Positions 17,114-57,681 of a stretch of 64,000 nt of DNA are shown piece by piece. The notes beneath the pieces are model-generated. The model was not told where the DNA came from. It saw only the letters and a list, made by a program, of their open reading frames with translations, and did no database searches. Origin of the DNA: Escherichia phage Sa157lw; sequence record OK322699.1, one strand, 5' to 3'. Every line of letters starts with the position of its first letter. Position 1 is the stretch's first letter. Made by a program: the position numbers and the translations under genes.

Positions 17114-17362
17114 ATGCGTGGAATGAAAGTACAGGGGCACGCATCCATGTTGAGAAGCAGTTCTTGTCCAGGCGCGATCATTTGTACTGATCATGCTGCA
17201 GGTATGGCTGCATTGCAAGCCCGTCAACGCAACGAAACCCGTGAAGCCACCATTGTTGAACAATCAAACCAGATATCGAATCTGGAGGCGACGATCAAAA
17301 TGATGGCCGAAAAGTTGGGGATAGAAATCCCCGAAGGAGGTCAGAATGGCGACGCAAGCTGA
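17114..17362 (+). CDS. hypothetical small protein
   Basis: ATG with AGGA SD inside the ORF-track frame 17075-17362. Confidence 0.3.
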   Translation: MRGMKVQGHASMLRSSSCPGAIICTDHAAGMAALQARQRNETREATIVEQSNQISNLEATIKMMAEKLGIEIPEGGQNGDAS

Positions 17363-17687
17363 AAGATCTGGGCTTGATATCCGTGGTATCTTGACTGCTG
17401 TCGTGGCTTCTGCATTGGTCTCGGCGGCGTCGTTCCTTTGGTTTATGGGTGGGATGGAAACACGCGTGAATGTATTGGAGCGAGATTCTAATAAAATGGA
17501 TCAGGTCCTTCAAAAGGTGAATGACATGAGTGAGCGCATGGCGATCATGAATACAGACCTCGCATATGTCAAACAAAATATGGCTGAGTTAAAACTCAAT
17601 AGCAGCAGCCTATCAGACGATGTCCGCACATTGCGGATTACTGTATCTGATTTGCAGCAACGAGGGAATAACAATGGCCGTCAATAA
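17346..17687 (+). CDS. membrane-anchored coiled-coil protein (possible i-spanin-like)
   Basis: GAAGGAGG SD; N-terminal TM helix (ILTAVVASALVSAASFLWFMGG) followed by a coiled-coil-like region. Confidence 0.35.
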   Translation: MATQAERSGLDIRGILTAVVASALVSAASFLWFMGGMETRVNVLERDSNKMDQVLQKVNDMSERMAIMNTDLAYVKQNMAELKLNSSSLSDDVRTLRITVSDLQQRGNNNGRQ

Positions 17688-52097: not shown

Positions 52098-52181
52098 TTC
52101 TATAAACTCCGGCGGGGTATGATTACCCCGCCTATTTGAAATTGCAGGAACTTATATCATGATCTCTGTCGAGGGTATAAT

Positions 52182-52469
52182 ATGACAAAGGAACAAGAAC
52201 TCGCTTTGTTCTCTATGGTTCGCAGTAATGTTAAATTGAGTTTTAGACAAGTGGACTCCATTATTGATCTTATGAAAATTAAGAATTCCATAGATAACGA
52301 TCATTTGCGCACCGCTCTTTTGGGATTGTTGGAATTCGTTTTGCGCGGATCTGATCTTGGACCAGTGAATGATATTGACGACCTGACCAAATTGTTAAAC
52401 ACTGGCGGTGATGGTTTCGATACCGCTCGTATTCTGATTAACTGTGGTCCTAACAAAGAAGAGGTATGA
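52182..52469 (+). CDS. hypothetical protein
   Basis: GAGGG SD. Confidence 0.45.
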   Translation: MTKEQELALFSMVRSNVKLSFRQVDSIIDLMKIKNSIDNDHLRTALLGLLEFVLRGSDLGPVNDIDDLTKLLNTGGDGFDTARILINCGPNKEEV

Positions 52470-52661
52470 TGTGGACAAAGATTTGGTTTGGGAAATCGTG
52501 AAAGGTATCCTGGTAATAATTGCTGTGGTCTTTATCCTAGGAGGAAACTTCTTCTATTGGTTATTGCGGTATGAAGAGAAGCGTCGAGAGCGGAAAGAAC
52601 AGAAGAGAAAAGATCGATGGATGAACTAACTAAGGGATAACCCTATATCCCGAGGTGTGTC

Positions 52662-53111
52662 ATGTTCCTTACATCCTTTATTGACTGGATGAATATCATA
52701 AATGGCCTGAGGATCCCTGTTGGGAACCTCGGGCTTTCTCGTTCTTCTATGCCGCAAATCGATGCCGACAAACAAGAAGATTTTCACAAATATCTTGAAG
52801 ACAACGGCGTGTCTATAGATGCTGCGCAAGTGCCCATCAAAATGCTTCGTCTTACCCAGAACGAAATCAACAAGATGAAGGTCTGGAAGATTATGAAGCA
52901 AATCCGAAATAAGAAACCTATGGGTCGAGTTTGGGTGTCTTCTGACAATTACGTTGTTGACGGATCTCACCGATTTGTCGCTGCGTTGAACATGGACGGC
53001 AAACAGCGCATGAAGGTCTACAAAGTTGATTTGCCAGCGATGGAATTTGTTAAACTCGCTAAACAGTTTCAAGGGGTGCGATACAGAACGGTCAGCGATA
53101 CCCGTTTCTGA
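52662..53111 (+). CDS. hypothetical protein, possible ParB/Srx-like fold
   Basis: GAGGTG SD; segment VWVSSDNYVVDGSHRFVAA loosely ParB-like; weak. Confidence 0.4.
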   Translation: MFLTSFIDWMNIINGLRIPVGNLGLSRSSMPQIDADKQEDFHKYLEDNGVSIDAAQVPIKMLRLTQNEINKMKVWKIMKQIRNKKPMGRVWVSSDNYVVDGSHRFVAALNMDGKQRMKVYKVDLPAMEFVKLAKQFQGVRYRTVSDTRF

Positions 53112-53190
53112 ATACGATAGTTTATTGAAACCCTTTACTCAACATGGTGACAGCCCTATCATTTTATCCAATGAAATAAGGAGAATCACC

Positions 53191-53880
53191 ATGAAACGTT
53201 TAATCCTCGGGGTTGTGCTGGCAGGTCTGGCATTACCCGCCGCCGCCAAGCTGAACTCCACAGGTGACAAACTGTGGTCTGATCTTTCCTACTGTGCTGG
53301 GTTCTCCCAGGCCGTGGCTATAGACAAGTCCGGTTCCATAGAGAATTTCGCTGAACTTTGGAACACGGGTAACGTCTCCACTGCTGTTGTTAATGCTGGG
53401 ATTGAGTTCAACCGTTACAAACAGGGAGCCTACAACTTGAAAGGCTACCTGAATGACGATGAATTTAACCGAGGAGGCATGGAGGCTGGCGATCTCATCA
53501 TGACTGGCCGTATGGGCACACAAGGCCGTATGACTGTAAGGCAATGCCGTTCTCTCCCCTCTCCGGCATTACAGAAGGGTGTGCAAATCGGGCGTCGACA
53601 TTTGGATCTGATCAATGATGGCAACCAATGCATCAAGGTGTTTGAATATAGTGCCGACCAAGAATCAGATCGACGTTTGAAAAAGGAATGGCGGACACGT
53701 GCCCTTGGATTGAGAGCATGGCTCGTAGAAAACGATTATTACTACGAGGATCGTGTTCAGAACGGATTGAAAGATCTTTCCACTAATTTGTCTGTCAATC
53801 TAGACGACCCAAGGCTTTCGCGTGAACTCAAGCAAACACGGATTGACTGCGACAATATGATGAAGGAGAACGAAAGATGA
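53191..53880 (+). CDS. secreted/periplasmic protein (signal peptide)
   Basis: ATG 53191; N-terminus MKRLILGVVLAGLALPAAAK is a typical Sec signal peptide. Confidence 0.5.
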   Translation: MKRLILGVVLAGLALPAAAKLNSTGDKLWSDLSYCAGFSQAVAIDKSGSIENFAELWNTGNVSTAVVNAGIEFNRYKQGAYNLKGYLNDDEFNRGGMEAGDLIMTGRMGTQGRMTVRQCRSLPSPALQKGVQIGRRHLDLINDGNQCIKVFEYSADQESDRRLKKEWRTRALGLRAWLVENDYYYEDRVQNGLKDLSTNLSVNLDDPRLSRELKQTRIDCDNMMKENER

Positions 53881-54197
53881 GAAACATAATATTCTTGTTA
53901 TTCTTTTCTATGTTGGCATCATTCCAAGTTATGGCGACTCCGGCCAGCAAATTGAATATTTGCGCGGCCTGGTTGTCTACTTATCAACAATTTCACCCTG
54001 ATGATAAAGATACATCTATCCTTTTATCGGATTATGAAGGTGAGTTGAAACGCCTTGATCTCTACAGCGTGGATCAAATAGAGAATGCTTTAGATTTGCC
54101 AATGATGGAGTCCGCTGCCGACAATAGCAAACAGACGATCAAAGATCTGACTATGTGTCGGGAAATAGCCACTAATTTCGTTGGAAATCAAAGATAA
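53877..54197 (+). CDS. small secreted protein (signal peptide)
   Basis: AAGGAG SD; N-terminus MRNIIFLLFFSMLASFQVMA. Confidence 0.5.
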   Translation: MRNIIFLLFFSMLASFQVMATPASKLNICAAWLSTYQQFHPDDKDTSILLSDYEGELKRLDLYSVDQIENALDLPMMESAADNSKQTIKDLTMCREIATNFVGNQR

Positions 54198-54247
54198 TTT
54201 TCAGGTTAAAATTTAACTTCCATTGAACTGAAAGGAAATACTTCGTG

Positions 54248-55054
54248 ATGATTATTACTAAAAAGATCGCCGAATCGATCGTTGAAAAGAATAAGATGTT
54301 CGCGCCCAACAAAGCAAAGGTCATTCTGATTCACGAAGACGGGCGCGTCATCTTCGCTGAGAAGTTTGAGCAGGGTTGTGCTTTCTGGTTCGCAGATACT
54401 ATGCGCGAAAGCAAGCTGCAGGGCATCATCTATAAATTGACCCTGGTTGCCAAGCGCAATGATCAGGGTGATTGGGTTACGGTCTGCGATTTCAGCTCTA
54501 AGGTTGAAACGAAAGCCAAAACCCGCCAAGAAAGAATTTTAGAGGCTCAGGAAAAACTTCGGGTCGCTCGCACATCATCCGCGGAGAAGCCGGAAATAAA
54601 ACCAGCCGTTATGCCTGTCACCAATAATCCGCTCCCACCTGTGGGTCAAAAGGCTTTCGAACAATATGTTGAAAAGAGAAAAGAAGAATCTATGAAGACT
54701 CCGGTAGAAAATAATGATGAGTCTGAATTCATTTCAATACGACAGTTGTGCCCGCAAGAACAACGTTATTCTTCTCCAAATGATTTATTTGTGTCATTCA
54801 GATGCAACGGGAAGATCATCCTGTGTAAAACTCTGCGTGAACAACTACCATGGCCTAACATCAATATGATGGTGAGTCGCAATTTTAAACGATTTGCTAT
54901 TAGTGAAGGGAACGATTATCCCGTAAACAAGAGCGGAACGTATGCCAACAAACATATGTGTGGTAAGTTGTCTTTCCCTAACGATTCCGGAACCATCCGC
55001 GTTCGTTTAGAATGGGATGAAACCCTGAACATGTATGTTGGTGATATAAAATAA
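54248..55054 (+). CDS. hypothetical protein
   Basis: ATG 54248 after AAAGGAAA SD. Confidence 0.45.
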   Translation: MIITKKIAESIVEKNKMFAPNKAKVILIHEDGRVIFAEKFEQGCAFWFADTMRESKLQGIIYKLTLVAKRNDQGDWVTVCDFSSKVETKAKTRQERILEAQEKLRVARTSSAEKPEIKPAVMPVTNNPLPPVGQKAFEQYVEKRKEESMKTPVENNDESEFISIRQLCPQEQRYSSPNDLFVSFRCNGKIILCKTLREQLPWPNINMMVSRNFKRFAISEGNDYPVNKSGTYANKHMCGKLSFPNDSGTIRVRLEWDETLNMYVGDIK

Positions 55055-55111
55055 TTCAATAACATTAGGGCGGTTATTATTAAACCGCCTTTTATTTGAG
55101 AGATCTATATT

Positions 55112-55781: not shown

Positions 55782-56069
55782 ATGTCCGGCGTATGGTGTG
55801 ATGTATTATTAGTGAGATTTTCAAACGGGATGGATAACCAGATTATTTCATTCTTTTATCCTGTTCCCTTTTCTTCTATGGGTCTGACTGTCAAGCGCGT
55901 TCTTGACATAGAAGAAAAACTCAACGCTATGCCGTATATGGCGCGACCACACGTGCTGGGTTGTGAACTGTTAAACGAAATGATGATCGATGAGAATCTT
56001 GTTGAAACAATTATCACGCGTGAACAGATGAAAACTATACTGGCTCAGGGAGAACCCCATGTCGAATAA
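55782..56069 (+). CDS. hypothetical protein
   Basis: ATG 55782 with GGAGG SD overlapping previous stop. Confidence 0.4.
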   Translation: MSGVWCDVLLVRFSNGMDNQIISFFYPVPFSSMGLTVKRVLDIEEKLNAMPYMARPHVLGCELLNEMMIDENLVETIITREQMKTILAQGEPHVE

Positions 56070-56379
56070 ACCGTTTGAACTTAAATTTCGCGTTTGGCAT
56101 ATTCCCCAGGTTCCTGGGATCGCTTTTCATGTTGAGGTTCCAACATTTGAAGAAGCGCAGCGCCTGAAGAATGCTCTGGGTGATTATGATTTGTTCCAGT
56201 TCAACAACAATATCAAGCCGGATTATTGCAATGCTTCGGGCATTCAGATTTATCAACATGATCTGACCGATGATGATCTTAATGATATGGGTCTGGATGA
56301 TCGTTGGGTTGATATGGAAGATGTTGACGAACTCAACGATTATTTCGAGCATCTGCGCAGTACAGGGTGGGAAATATGA
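56059..56379 (+). CDS. hypothetical acidic protein
   Basis: ORF with GGGAGAA SD. Confidence 0.45.
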   Translation: MSNKPFELKFRVWHIPQVPGIAFHVEVPTFEEAQRLKNALGDYDLFQFNNNIKPDYCNASGIQIYQHDLTDDDLNDMGLDDRWVDMEDVDELNDYFEHLRSTGWEI

Positions 56380-56684
56380 TTTCAAAATATATTGTAAAGC
56401 CTGGGGATACTCTGTCCAGCATCGCTCTAAAATTATATGGTGATGCCCAACAGTATATCAAATTAGCCAGATTCAACAATATCCAAAACCCAGGCCATAT
56501 CACGGTTGGTCAGGTTATTTGTTTACCCACACCTGTCGAAGACAAAGAACACATTATGATTCCGGTTCAACCGACTCAGAAGTGTTTGGATGCGATAGCT
56601 GGTTTATTTCGGCCAGGTTTTTGTGATGGAACTATTGAACGTCACATTTATCAAGCGATTGTGGAAAACGCAGGTGTAAAATGA
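56376..56684 (+). CDS. LysM domain protein
   Basis: YIVKPGDTLSSIALKLYGD...YIKLARFNNIQNPGHITVGQVICLP fits the LysM motif. Confidence 0.6.
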   Translation: MISKYIVKPGDTLSSIALKLYGDAQQYIKLARFNNIQNPGHITVGQVICLPTPVEDKEHIMIPVQPTQKCLDAIAGLFRPGFCDGTIERHIYQAIVENAGVK

Positions 56685-56890
56685 TCGGATTAATTCGTTA
56701 CCTGTTCATATTCGTAATTTCAACATTCATTTTATTTTTCTTTTTCAAATACTTGAAAGAGACTAAAATCTACCGAAGTAAACGTTGGCGCAAACGGGTG
56801 AGGGTAACTTTCCTGCTGCTGATTTCTTCGGTTACAATAACCGCACTCACATTGGGTGCATATATCTACATTTTTGAAGGGGTACATTGA
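56681..56890 (+). CDS. small membrane protein
   Basis: Two hydrophobic helices (FIFVISTFILFFFF; VTFLLLISSVTITALTLGAYIYIF); start overlaps LysM stop. Confidence 0.45.
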   Translation: MIGLIRYLFIFVISTFILFFFFKYLKETKIYRSKRWRKRVRVTFLLLISSVTITALTLGAYIYIFEGVH

Positions 56891-57681
56891 TGTTCAAGAA
56901 ATTGGTGTTCGGTGCAATTATGGTTCTGGCTGCAAGTCTACTTTCTGGTTGTGGTGGCGTTATCGATGAAGGTAATGTCGGCGTTCGCACCCAATGGGGT
57001 GAAGTAGACATGAACCCTGTAACAGCGGGGATCTACACCAGCTTTGTTTCAAGCGTGGATGTTTACACGACCAAAGAAGCCGTTGTGAGTCTGACTAAAA
57101 TGACGCCAAAGGCCAAAGACAACCTGACTCTGGAAGACTTGGATGTGGATGTTTATTACACACCCAATGTCGCAAAGGTTCCGTGGTTCCATACCAAATT
57201 TGCTGGCCAGAGCGCTGAACTCGATGATGGCACGATAGCGGTGGGTTTCAATCTAGTTAAAACTGCTGCAGCATCTTCTTCGATGGACGCCGTTTCTTCT
57301 CTTGATTCTATGACAATTCACACCCAACGTGCTGAATTAGAGAAGATGATTAAAGACCGCACTCAGCAACAATTAGAGACTGCTGCGCCTGGCATGTTCA
57401 CAATCACACGCGTGTTGGTCAAAAAGGCGCTGACGGATCCTTCTATTGAGCAGTCTATCCGTGATAATGTTATGGCGGACAAACGATTGGATACGGCAAG
57501 AAAGAACGTTGAAATTCGCGAGCAAGAAGCCCAAGCGAACCAGAAACTGACCACTTCGCTGACGCCTGAATATCTTCAACATGAATATAACATGGTATTA
57601 CAATCATGTGCCAATAGTGGAAAATGTACTCTGATCGTTGACGGATCCGGCTCAGGTAAAATGCTGAACGTCGGCAAATAA
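56890..57681 (+). CDS. lipoprotein with SPFH (band-7/prohibitin-like) domain
   Basis: Signal peptide with lipobox LLSGC; SPFH-like N-terminal segment (GNVGVRTQWGEV...TKEAVV...DVDVYY) and coiled-coil C-terminus. Confidence 0.5.
   Translation: MFKKLVFGAIMVLAASLLSGCGGVIDEGNVGVRTQWGEVDMNPVTAGIYTSFVSSVDVYTTKEAVVSLTKMTPKAKDNLTLEDLDVDVYYTPNVAKVPWFHTKFAGQSAELDDGTIAVGFNLVKTAAASSSMDAVSSLDSMTIHTQRAELEKMIKDRTQQQLETAAPGMFTITRVLVKKALTDPSIEQSIRDNVMADKRLDTARKNVEIREQEAQANQKLTTSLTPEYLQHEYNMVLQSCANSGKCTLIVDGSGSGKMLNVGK

Follow-up and report, generated by a model that had tools for sequence, protein, structure and literature searches.

A translationally coupled pair of predicted periplasmic proteins in Ackermannviridae phages and the origin of its spanin label

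Introduction

What is the function of two overlapping phage genes whose products both start with an apparent signal peptide, and are they rightly filed as spanins? The question is raised by a stretch of 64,000 nucleotides from Escherichia phage Sa157lw (record OK322699.1), which we analyzed at its full length and refer to as the window. It represents a Vi01-like Kuttervirus (Ackermannviridae) genome. Five plus-strand genes are located between positions 52182 and 54197, and the last two of them encode the proteins studied here: p4, the 229-residue product of 53191-53880, and p5, the 106-residue product of 53877-54197. A previous sequence-only reading had described the locus as a cluster of small, early-type genes, had noted Sec signal peptides in both products, and had pointed to lysis and exclusion as the usual occupations of exported phage proteins. 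In GenBank and RefSeq, p4 is called "i-spanin", and p5 is called "o-spanin", "Rz-like spanin" or "lipoprotein". Hundreds of Ackermannviridae records have the spanin labels on the two genes, and many of these records are from phages that have been proposed for therapy or biocontrol. Our analysis favors p4 and p5 being exported, soluble proteins that do not constitute a canonical spanin, a reading to which we assign a probability of roughly 0.55. A specific role in exclusion or lysis control commands only a fraction of that probability.

Results

We analyzed the N termini of p4 and p5 with respect to the sequence features that define Sec substrates of signal peptidase I (SPase-I), namely a basic n-region, an h-region of 7-15 residues, and small uncharged residues at positions -3 and -1. 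Both proteins have a basic n-region, a hydrophobic core of 12-13 residues, and small residues at -3/-1. The p4 signal peptide (MKRLILGVVLAGLALPAAA↓K; arrows denote predicted cleavage) spans codons 1-19, with MKR as the n-region, LILGVVLAGLAL as the h-region (L4-L15, 12 residues), and PAAA↓K as the c-region, which places a proline at -4. The p5 signal peptide (MRNIIFLLFFSMLASFQVMA↓TP) spans codons 1-20 and is composed of the n-region MR, the h-region NIIFLLFFSMLASF, and the c-region QVMA↓T. A rough gene call of the window (78 genes) contains no other SPase-I-type N termini, and apart from the pair only a single lipoprotein and a handful of small membrane proteins are directed to the envelope.

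The signals are conserved throughout both families. Ala-17 and Ala-19 (-3/-1) are invariant in 22 p4 sequences, with A, P, T, S or H at -2. Remote p4 homologues (31-39% identity) have the cleavage sites TSA↓W, ASA↓A and ANA↓G, and SPase-I signals together with the conserved cysteines are present in the remote homologues P0068, P0069 and P0075. The N-terminal 20-30 residues of 43 p5 orthologues can hardly be aligned, in contrast to the highly conserved mature protein, and a charged or basic start followed by a hydrophobic core is always retained. An A↓x-P junction is conserved in all 43 except the most divergent one, L008 (ARA↓DE), and is retained in orthologues at 30-46% identity. The signals are thus not a chance feature, because they are conserved as a grammar rather than as a sequence. 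Judged from these alignments, the N-terminal variation is what results when selection acts on signal-peptide properties instead of on the sequence itself. The Sec signal peptides of the sequence-only reading are borne out by this family-wide -3/-1 conservation, and p4 and p5 are predicted to be exported and cleaved in vivo. The p5 signal peptide also varies in length (~19-31 residues) and in sequence far more than its cargo, and a change between the SPase-I and the lipoprotein type has occurred among very close relatives. Unusually labile targeting here accompanies a conserved cargo.

The two genes are tightly linked. A strong Shine-Dalgarno sequence (AAGGAG) is located 7-8 nucleotides before each start codon, and the stop codon of p4 and the start codon of p5 overlap (ATGA). 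Neither family extends beyond Ackermannviridae-like phages: a p4 profile search of 1.8 billion representatives returned 10 matches, all Ackermannviridae-like, and a p5 profile search added just five, likewise Ackermannviridae-like. A gene for a 149-residue ParB-N/Srx-like protein is always located immediately upstream of p4-p5, also in the distant relatives L007, L008 and L009, and the order ParB-like, p4, p5 is retained with the stop/start overlap in three divergent lineages, down to 30% identity. By these comparisons, p4-p5 is a core, always-adjacent and translationally coupled module of the Ackermannviridae. p4 sequences from phages of Salmonella, Klebsiella, Serratia and Escherichia are 77-100% identical, with numerous Gly, Asn, Asp, Arg and Trp residues that are invariant, and p5 in the window is 100% identical to Vi01 p5. 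In Serratia phage vB_SmaA_3M (L009 6001-6683), p4 consists of the N-domain alone with its own cysteine pair (126 residues) and is directly followed by p5, and in Salmonella phage 38 (P0067) a frameshift interrupts p4 after about residue 129. Given these two cases, the p4 C-domain seems dispensable, unless the phage 38 record holds a sequencing error.

The mature part of p4 (~210 residues) comprises two domains with four invariant cysteines (35, 119, 147 and 220), two in each domain (C35/C119 and C147/C220). Mature p5 has 86 residues, is acidic (isoelectric point 4.5), and contains two conserved cysteines (29 and 94). An even number of cysteines per domain would fit disulfide bonds formed in the periplasm. 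The AlphaFold2 model of p5 (predicted local distance difference test score, pLDDT, 85.9) is a confident one and shows a compact bundle of helices, five of them in the mature part. A Foldseek comparison of this model with the PDB returned nothing below E = 4, and its single match in BFVD is an uncharacterised orthologue from an Erwinia phage. Neither protein has a match in Pfam, NCBIfam, PADLOC or PDB sequences, and the same resources revealed no catalytic motif. A possible paralogy of p5 and the p4 N-domain was considered and left unconfirmed, with hhalign matching just the signal peptide and the first cysteine motif (probability 14%, then 44%). A crude heptad score was dropped, as lambda Rz could not be told apart from p4 or p5 with it.

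We compared these features to the spanin label. The label traces to a single student annotation of phage Marshall in SpaninDB that was flagged as doubtful by the curators. That database lists the Marshall orthologues of p4 and p5 among the two-component spanins, under the "separated" type (Kongari et al. 2018, PMC6139136). They form a singleton family, the longest of 528 systems with 300 periplasmic residues, with 35% predicted helix and 12% strand for the p4 orthologue and 0 coiled coils, a property shared with >120 accepted i-spanins (PMC6139136). Table 10 of the same paper classifies Vi01, CBA120, ECML-4, PhaxI, Maynard, SFP10, SJ2, SJ3, phiSboM-AG3 and Dickeya RC-2014 as spanin-less. All 10 are Ackermannviridae that carry the two genes. 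PHROGs in turn names the p5 family "Rz-like spanin", and the members of this family (phrog_3843) are these same Ackermannviridae proteins.

In the spanin field, an outer-membrane lipoprotein signal (lipobox) is regarded as a requirement for an o-spanin (PMC6139136). p5 in the window has no cysteine before residue 29 and no lipobox, and the motif is absent from 35 of the 43 orthologues. Marshall p5 does start with a real lipobox (MKCKILLLMVLIAG↓C; LIAG↓C). Of the eight lipobox orthologues among the 43, seven belong to one shallow sub-clade and one is a singleton. The sub-clade is nested among SPase-I forms, the nearest neighbour of a lipobox form has a serine in place of the cysteine, and the deepest p5 branches (L007, L008 and phiMAM1/3M) all have SPase-I sites. 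The lipobox-type forms also retain a downstream V-N-A↓A-P site. As to the i-spanin, the predicted p4 core of 12 residues is followed by a proline and the invariant A-x-A, as in its remote homologues, which does not fit a membrane anchor; the best 19-residue window reaches a mean hydropathy of 1.68 with the c-region included. We found no homology of p4 to i-spanin families in Pfam, NCBIfam or PDB sequences, and none of p5 to o-spanin families in Pfam or NCBIfam. These findings together indicate that the public label rests on a flagged, lineage-specific call and is at odds with the defining sequence features of spanins, in the window copy as well as in most family members.

A lipobox scan of a complete related genome, that of Salmonella phage Guerrero, revealed no canonical spanin pair elsewhere, and there is no u-spanin architecture either. 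The scan for lipoboxes returned only a SPFH/Band_7 lipoprotein and a 114-residue lipoprotein, neither of which has an anchored partner or a C-terminal transmembrane domain. It is because of this lack of another canonical spanin that the spanin reading is kept alive. The 114-residue lipoprotein (MKLNKILLVCALAFSTTA↓C; Guerrero 148871-149215, outside the window) is encoded just after the DNA polymerase gene, has six further cysteines and no nearby transmembrane partner, and is the only other small lipoprotein in that genome.

Next to the pair itself, the gene cluster proposed in the sequence-only reading is real, with its 95-, 52- and 149-residue open reading frames each matching a phage family (Table 1). 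Positions 52100-54300 share 98% identity with Salmonella phages ST2 and Guerrero, and 273 phage records match. The early character ascribed to the cluster is borne out indirectly, by two bounding terminators, by sigma-70-like promoters, and by the absence of a CTAAATA late-type motif. The upstream terminator has a folding energy of -19.5 kcal/mol (z = -5.7 versus shuffles). Two occurrences of the pattern TTTACT-N16-18-TATNAT, each of them intergenic, are found in the window, where 0.15 would be expected. At the p4 promoter candidate, the hexamers are identical in Guerrero and in Salmonella phage PS5, with 5 substitutions in the spacer, and PS5 retains the candidate despite an 834-bp gene inserted upstream. 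This extra gene (L002 3961-4794) is located between the ParB-like gene and p4, and upstream of the cluster PS5 also has a gene for a pyrimidine-dimer glycosylase; the window has neither.

CTAAATA is found in intergenic positions 5' of 8 structural genes (tail-spike, tail, neck, portal and prohead). CTAAATA(CC) probably serves this phage family as its late-promoter motif, equivalent to the T4 late promoter, and none is found within 51-58 kb of the window. The T4-type late promoter TATAAATA was rejected as the late motif of this phage, because 64 kb contain a single copy, fewer than expected by chance; CTAAATA fits better. The p4-p5 unit is located among replication and recombination genes, and the endolysin gene is ~21 kb away (in a related genome), so that linkage to a lysis cassette is not seen either. 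T4-like phages scatter their lysis genes, which makes the distant endolysin gene and the missing late motif weak evidence on timing. The promoter and motif matches point, weakly, to early or middle expression by the host polymerase. The octamer TTCAATAA occurs 14 times in the window against 4.0 expected, a count reached in 0/100 shuffles. Its sites are mostly intergenic, fall in the early/middle part of the window, and are often found within or beside TTTACT-N17-TATNAT promoter-like elements.

Table 1. Positions of the p4-p5 genes, the flanking signals and further features in the window
Feature	Coordinates	Strand	Basis or remarks
Intrinsic terminator, 5' cluster edge, ends upstream unit	52111..52132	+	9-bp G+C-rich stem, 4-nt loop, then TATTT
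Sigma-70-like promoter candidate for the cluster, TTGAAA-16-CATGAT	52136..52163	+	consensus scan, 9/12 matches (weak)
95-residue protein, no export signal	52182..52469	+	open reading frame; phrog_4458, E = 2e-30
52-residue single-pass membrane protein, very basic C-terminal tail	52471..52629	+	phrog_14464 "membrane protein", E = 4e-18
149-residue ParB-N/Srx-like protein, DGSHR motif	52662..53111	+	phrog_2859, E = 3e-45; weak ParB-like match
Sigma-70-type promoter candidate TTTACT-17-TATCAT, immediately 5' of p4	53134..53162	+	
p4, 229-residue predicted exported protein	53191..53880	+	phrog_4260 "unknown function"
p4 predicted signal peptide	53191-53247	+	codons 1-19
p5, 106-residue predicted exported protein	53877..54197	+	phrog_3843, labelled "Rz-like spanin"
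p5 predicted signal peptide	53877-53936	+	codons 1-20
269-residue cytoplasmic-type protein	54245..55054	+	phrog_3828
Intrinsic terminator, closes unit	55067..55091	+	9-bp stem, then T-run; -12.7 kcal/mol, z = -3.6
DUF7425 protein	55782-56069	+	
P22 gp17 homologue	56059-56379	+	PF17420, E = 6e-52
LysM-domain protein	56376-56684		no signal peptide
69-residue protein	56681-56890	+	two transmembrane segments
263-residue SPFH/Band_7 lipoprotein	56890-57681	+	signal MFKKLVFGAIMVLAASLLSG↓C
113-residue protein, late structural operon	17346-17687	+	N-terminal transmembrane segment ~14-36, basic residues before it
CTAAATA, often CTAAATACCCC	2038, 5266, 7476, 12184, 18699, 22949, 27730, 28948	+	
Octamer TTCAATAA, sites include	32863, 32885, 44725, 51573, 55055, 57690	+	
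Octamer TTCAATAA, sites include	53122	-	

We also inspected the other genes of the cluster and its surroundings. The 95-residue protein has no matches in Pfam or NCBIfam. The transmembrane segment of the 52-residue protein corresponds to residues 5-23 (mean hydropathy 2.67), and a longer form starting at GTG 52444 is possible. The gene for the 269-residue protein is probably co-transcribed with p4-p5, because there is no stable hairpin between p5 and 54245 (z = +0.65). Further downstream, the P22 gp17 homologue is a clear one and is called "superinfection exclusion protein" in the records. P22 gp17 has been described as helping the phage to escape exclusion by Fels-type prophages. The stop codon of the 69-residue membrane protein overlaps the start of the SPFH/Band_7 lipoprotein gene. 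In L007, these two genes come directly after p4/p5, and for this reason p4, p5, the 69-residue protein and the SPFH lipoprotein may represent one four-protein envelope module. In the late structural operon, the 113-residue protein has a heptad-rich helical tail of ~75 residues and appears more i-spanin- or holin-like than p4. No lipoprotein gene is adjacent to or embedded in its gene, and the Guerrero annotation reads "putative capsid protein".

Discussion

If p4 and p5 are indeed soluble exported proteins, transcription would start at a sigma-70-type promoter of their own, ahead of the late genes or independently of them, and the overlap of stop and start codons would lead to translation in roughly equal amounts. 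Both would then be exported by Sec and cut by SPase-I after A-x-A, between A19 and K20 in p4 and between A20 and T21 in p5. Oxidation in the periplasm would link one cysteine pair per domain, two in p4 and one in p5, and the proteins would act in soluble form, probably as a complex. Their most likely job would be to alter or guard the envelope of an already infected cell before lysis, and the role is the step that we infer most weakly. Superinfection exclusion, protection from lysis from without, and the sensing or timing of lysis are conceivable examples, by analogy with T4 Spackle and T4 RI. Of the lysis and exclusion options offered by the sequence-only reading, exclusion or lysis control fits better than disruption of the outer membrane. 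We infer export, cleavage, disulfide bonds, complex formation, expression timing and biological role alike.

Several points speak against this interpretation. In the literature, we found no experiment on any member of the p4 or p5 family, be it a knock-out or export data, and no transcriptome for the Ackermannviridae phage family; the promoter assignments represent consensus matches. The AlphaFold2 model of p4, built from a 22-sequence alignment, has a pLDDT of only 41.8 and is unreliable. Sequence alone cannot separate cleavage of p4 and p5 from signal-anchor behaviour. Finally, p5 may be membrane-tethered in the eight phages that have the lipobox.

The database label, if right, would place p4 in the inner membrane as an i-spanin and p5 in the outer membrane as an o-spanin, and the two would together span the periplasm and, at the final stage of lysis, fuse or disrupt the outer membrane. 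We regard this as improbable. The labels in GenBank, RefSeq and PHROGs and the SpaninDB entry speak for it, as do the adjacent, overlapping genes in the order i then o, two envelope-directed products with cysteines, as in many spanins, and the canonical lipobox of the Marshall-type sub-clade. The family would otherwise be spanin-less, and more than 120 accepted i-spanins likewise have no predicted coiled coil. However, the lipobox expected of an o-spanin is missing in the window and in all deepest branches, and it is confined to a shallow sub-clade and a singleton, with a serine at the cysteine position in the nearest relative of a lipobox form. The short p4 h-region with its invariant A-x-A fits a cleavable signal rather than an anchor, and p5 is modelled as a folded helical bundle. 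The SpaninDB curators flagged the entry, a singleton family and the longest of all systems, with 35% helix and no predicted coiled coil, and the same paper counts phages with the same genes as spanin-less. A match to a spanin family in Pfam or NCBIfam and a late-promoter motif are both missing. A variant of the lysis idea would take p4/p5 as the missing lysis component, a soluble, disulfide-bonded periplasmic pair that controls or executes the last lysis step without a membrane anchor. We give this only a slim chance. If true, the lipobox forms would represent evolutionary intermediates between soluble and tethered states, and the pair would add a third way of disrupting the outer membrane or controlling lysis to those of spanins and disruptin-type peptides.

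The anchor ambiguity of p4 also allows for a holin/antiholin arrangement, in which p4 would be a signal-anchored type II inner-membrane protein like the T4 holin T and p5 its soluble partner like the antiholin RI, together setting or delaying the time of lysis. Sizes and topologies do resemble those of T (218 residues, large periplasmic domain) and RI (97 residues, cleavable signal, helical), the tight coupling suggests a 1:1 complex, the phage encodes rIIA and rIIB homologues, and the family annotations examined assign no holin. Against this, p4 has 3 residues before a core that is too short for a membrane span and that ends in an invariant cleavage site, it has no match to the Pfam holin-T family, and its C-domain is dispensable in phage 3M. 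p5 finds no structural match to RI in the PDB, and small proteins with several transmembrane domains elsewhere in the genome are better holin candidates, so that we place little belief in this arrangement. Alternatively, the pair could be a periplasmic enzyme or binding protein that remodels the host envelope, with peptidoglycan, lipopolysaccharide/O-antigen, capsule or a receptor as the target, and that is unrelated to exclusion or lysis. The unusual conservation of p4 with its many invariant residues would be expected for contacts to a conserved target, and the LysM protein, the protein with two transmembrane domains and the SPFH lipoprotein are envelope-directed proteins encoded nearby. With no catalytic motif or family match, an unreliable p4 model, and no pointer to a specific substrate, we consider envelope remodelling unlikely, if worth keeping in view. 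Soluble export without a canonical spanin function remains our preferred reading.

If the pair is not a spanin, the route by which this large phage family breaches the outer membrane would still need an explanation. p4-p5, as a strictly conserved and coupled pair with no known relatives, is a candidate, and a manageable one, for a new function in superinfection exclusion or lysis control among the phages of Salmonella and E. coli. What is new here is a family within a known kind, the phage-encoded exported periplasmic proteins.

Comparison with Known Systems

We compared the pair to phage systems that act in the host envelope. Two-component spanins, such as lambda Rz/Rz1 and T4 PseT.3/PseT.2, share with p4-p5 adjacent or overlapping genes with the larger one first, envelope-directed products and conserved cysteines, and one p5 sub-clade, including Marshall, shares the true lipobox. 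They differ in that p4 has a cleavable signal instead of an anchor, and in that p5 is mostly without a lipobox and forms a folded 86-residue helical bundle rather than a short proline-rich tether. There is no sequence homology, the pair lacks the late-promoter motif, and its periplasmic length exceeds that of the other systems in SpaninDB. The spanin-less phages of Table 10 (PMC6139136), that is Vi01, CBA120 and eight other Ackermannviridae, agree with our genome scan, in a list that is a negative category and silent on the role of p4/p5.

A different kind of likeness is found in two T4 proteins. Spackle (gp61.3) serves as a superinfection-exclusion factor in the periplasm; it inhibits the tail lysozyme gp5 and is made before the late genes. 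Spackle and p5 are both small, helical and, in the case of p5 by prediction, Sec-exported and soluble, and both come from large virulent myoviruses with a gp5-like tail lysozyme. In contrast to Spackle, to which we detected no sequence or fold similarity, p5 always has an exported partner, p4. In the T4 antiholin RI, the signal peptide is cleavable, according to Mehner-Breitfeld et al. 2021 as cited in PMC9902359. Like p5, RI measures ~100 residues and combines a signal at the N terminus with a helical domain and a protein partner in the periplasm. Homology or a fold match between the two was not detected, p4 is not holin-like, and lysis inhibition is not documented for Ackermannviridae phages in the literature searched. 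While p5 shares neither sequence nor fold homology with Spackle or RI, it has the profile of such proteins, being small, signal-bearing, helical and, by prediction, soluble in the periplasm, and may thus represent a functional analogue of them.

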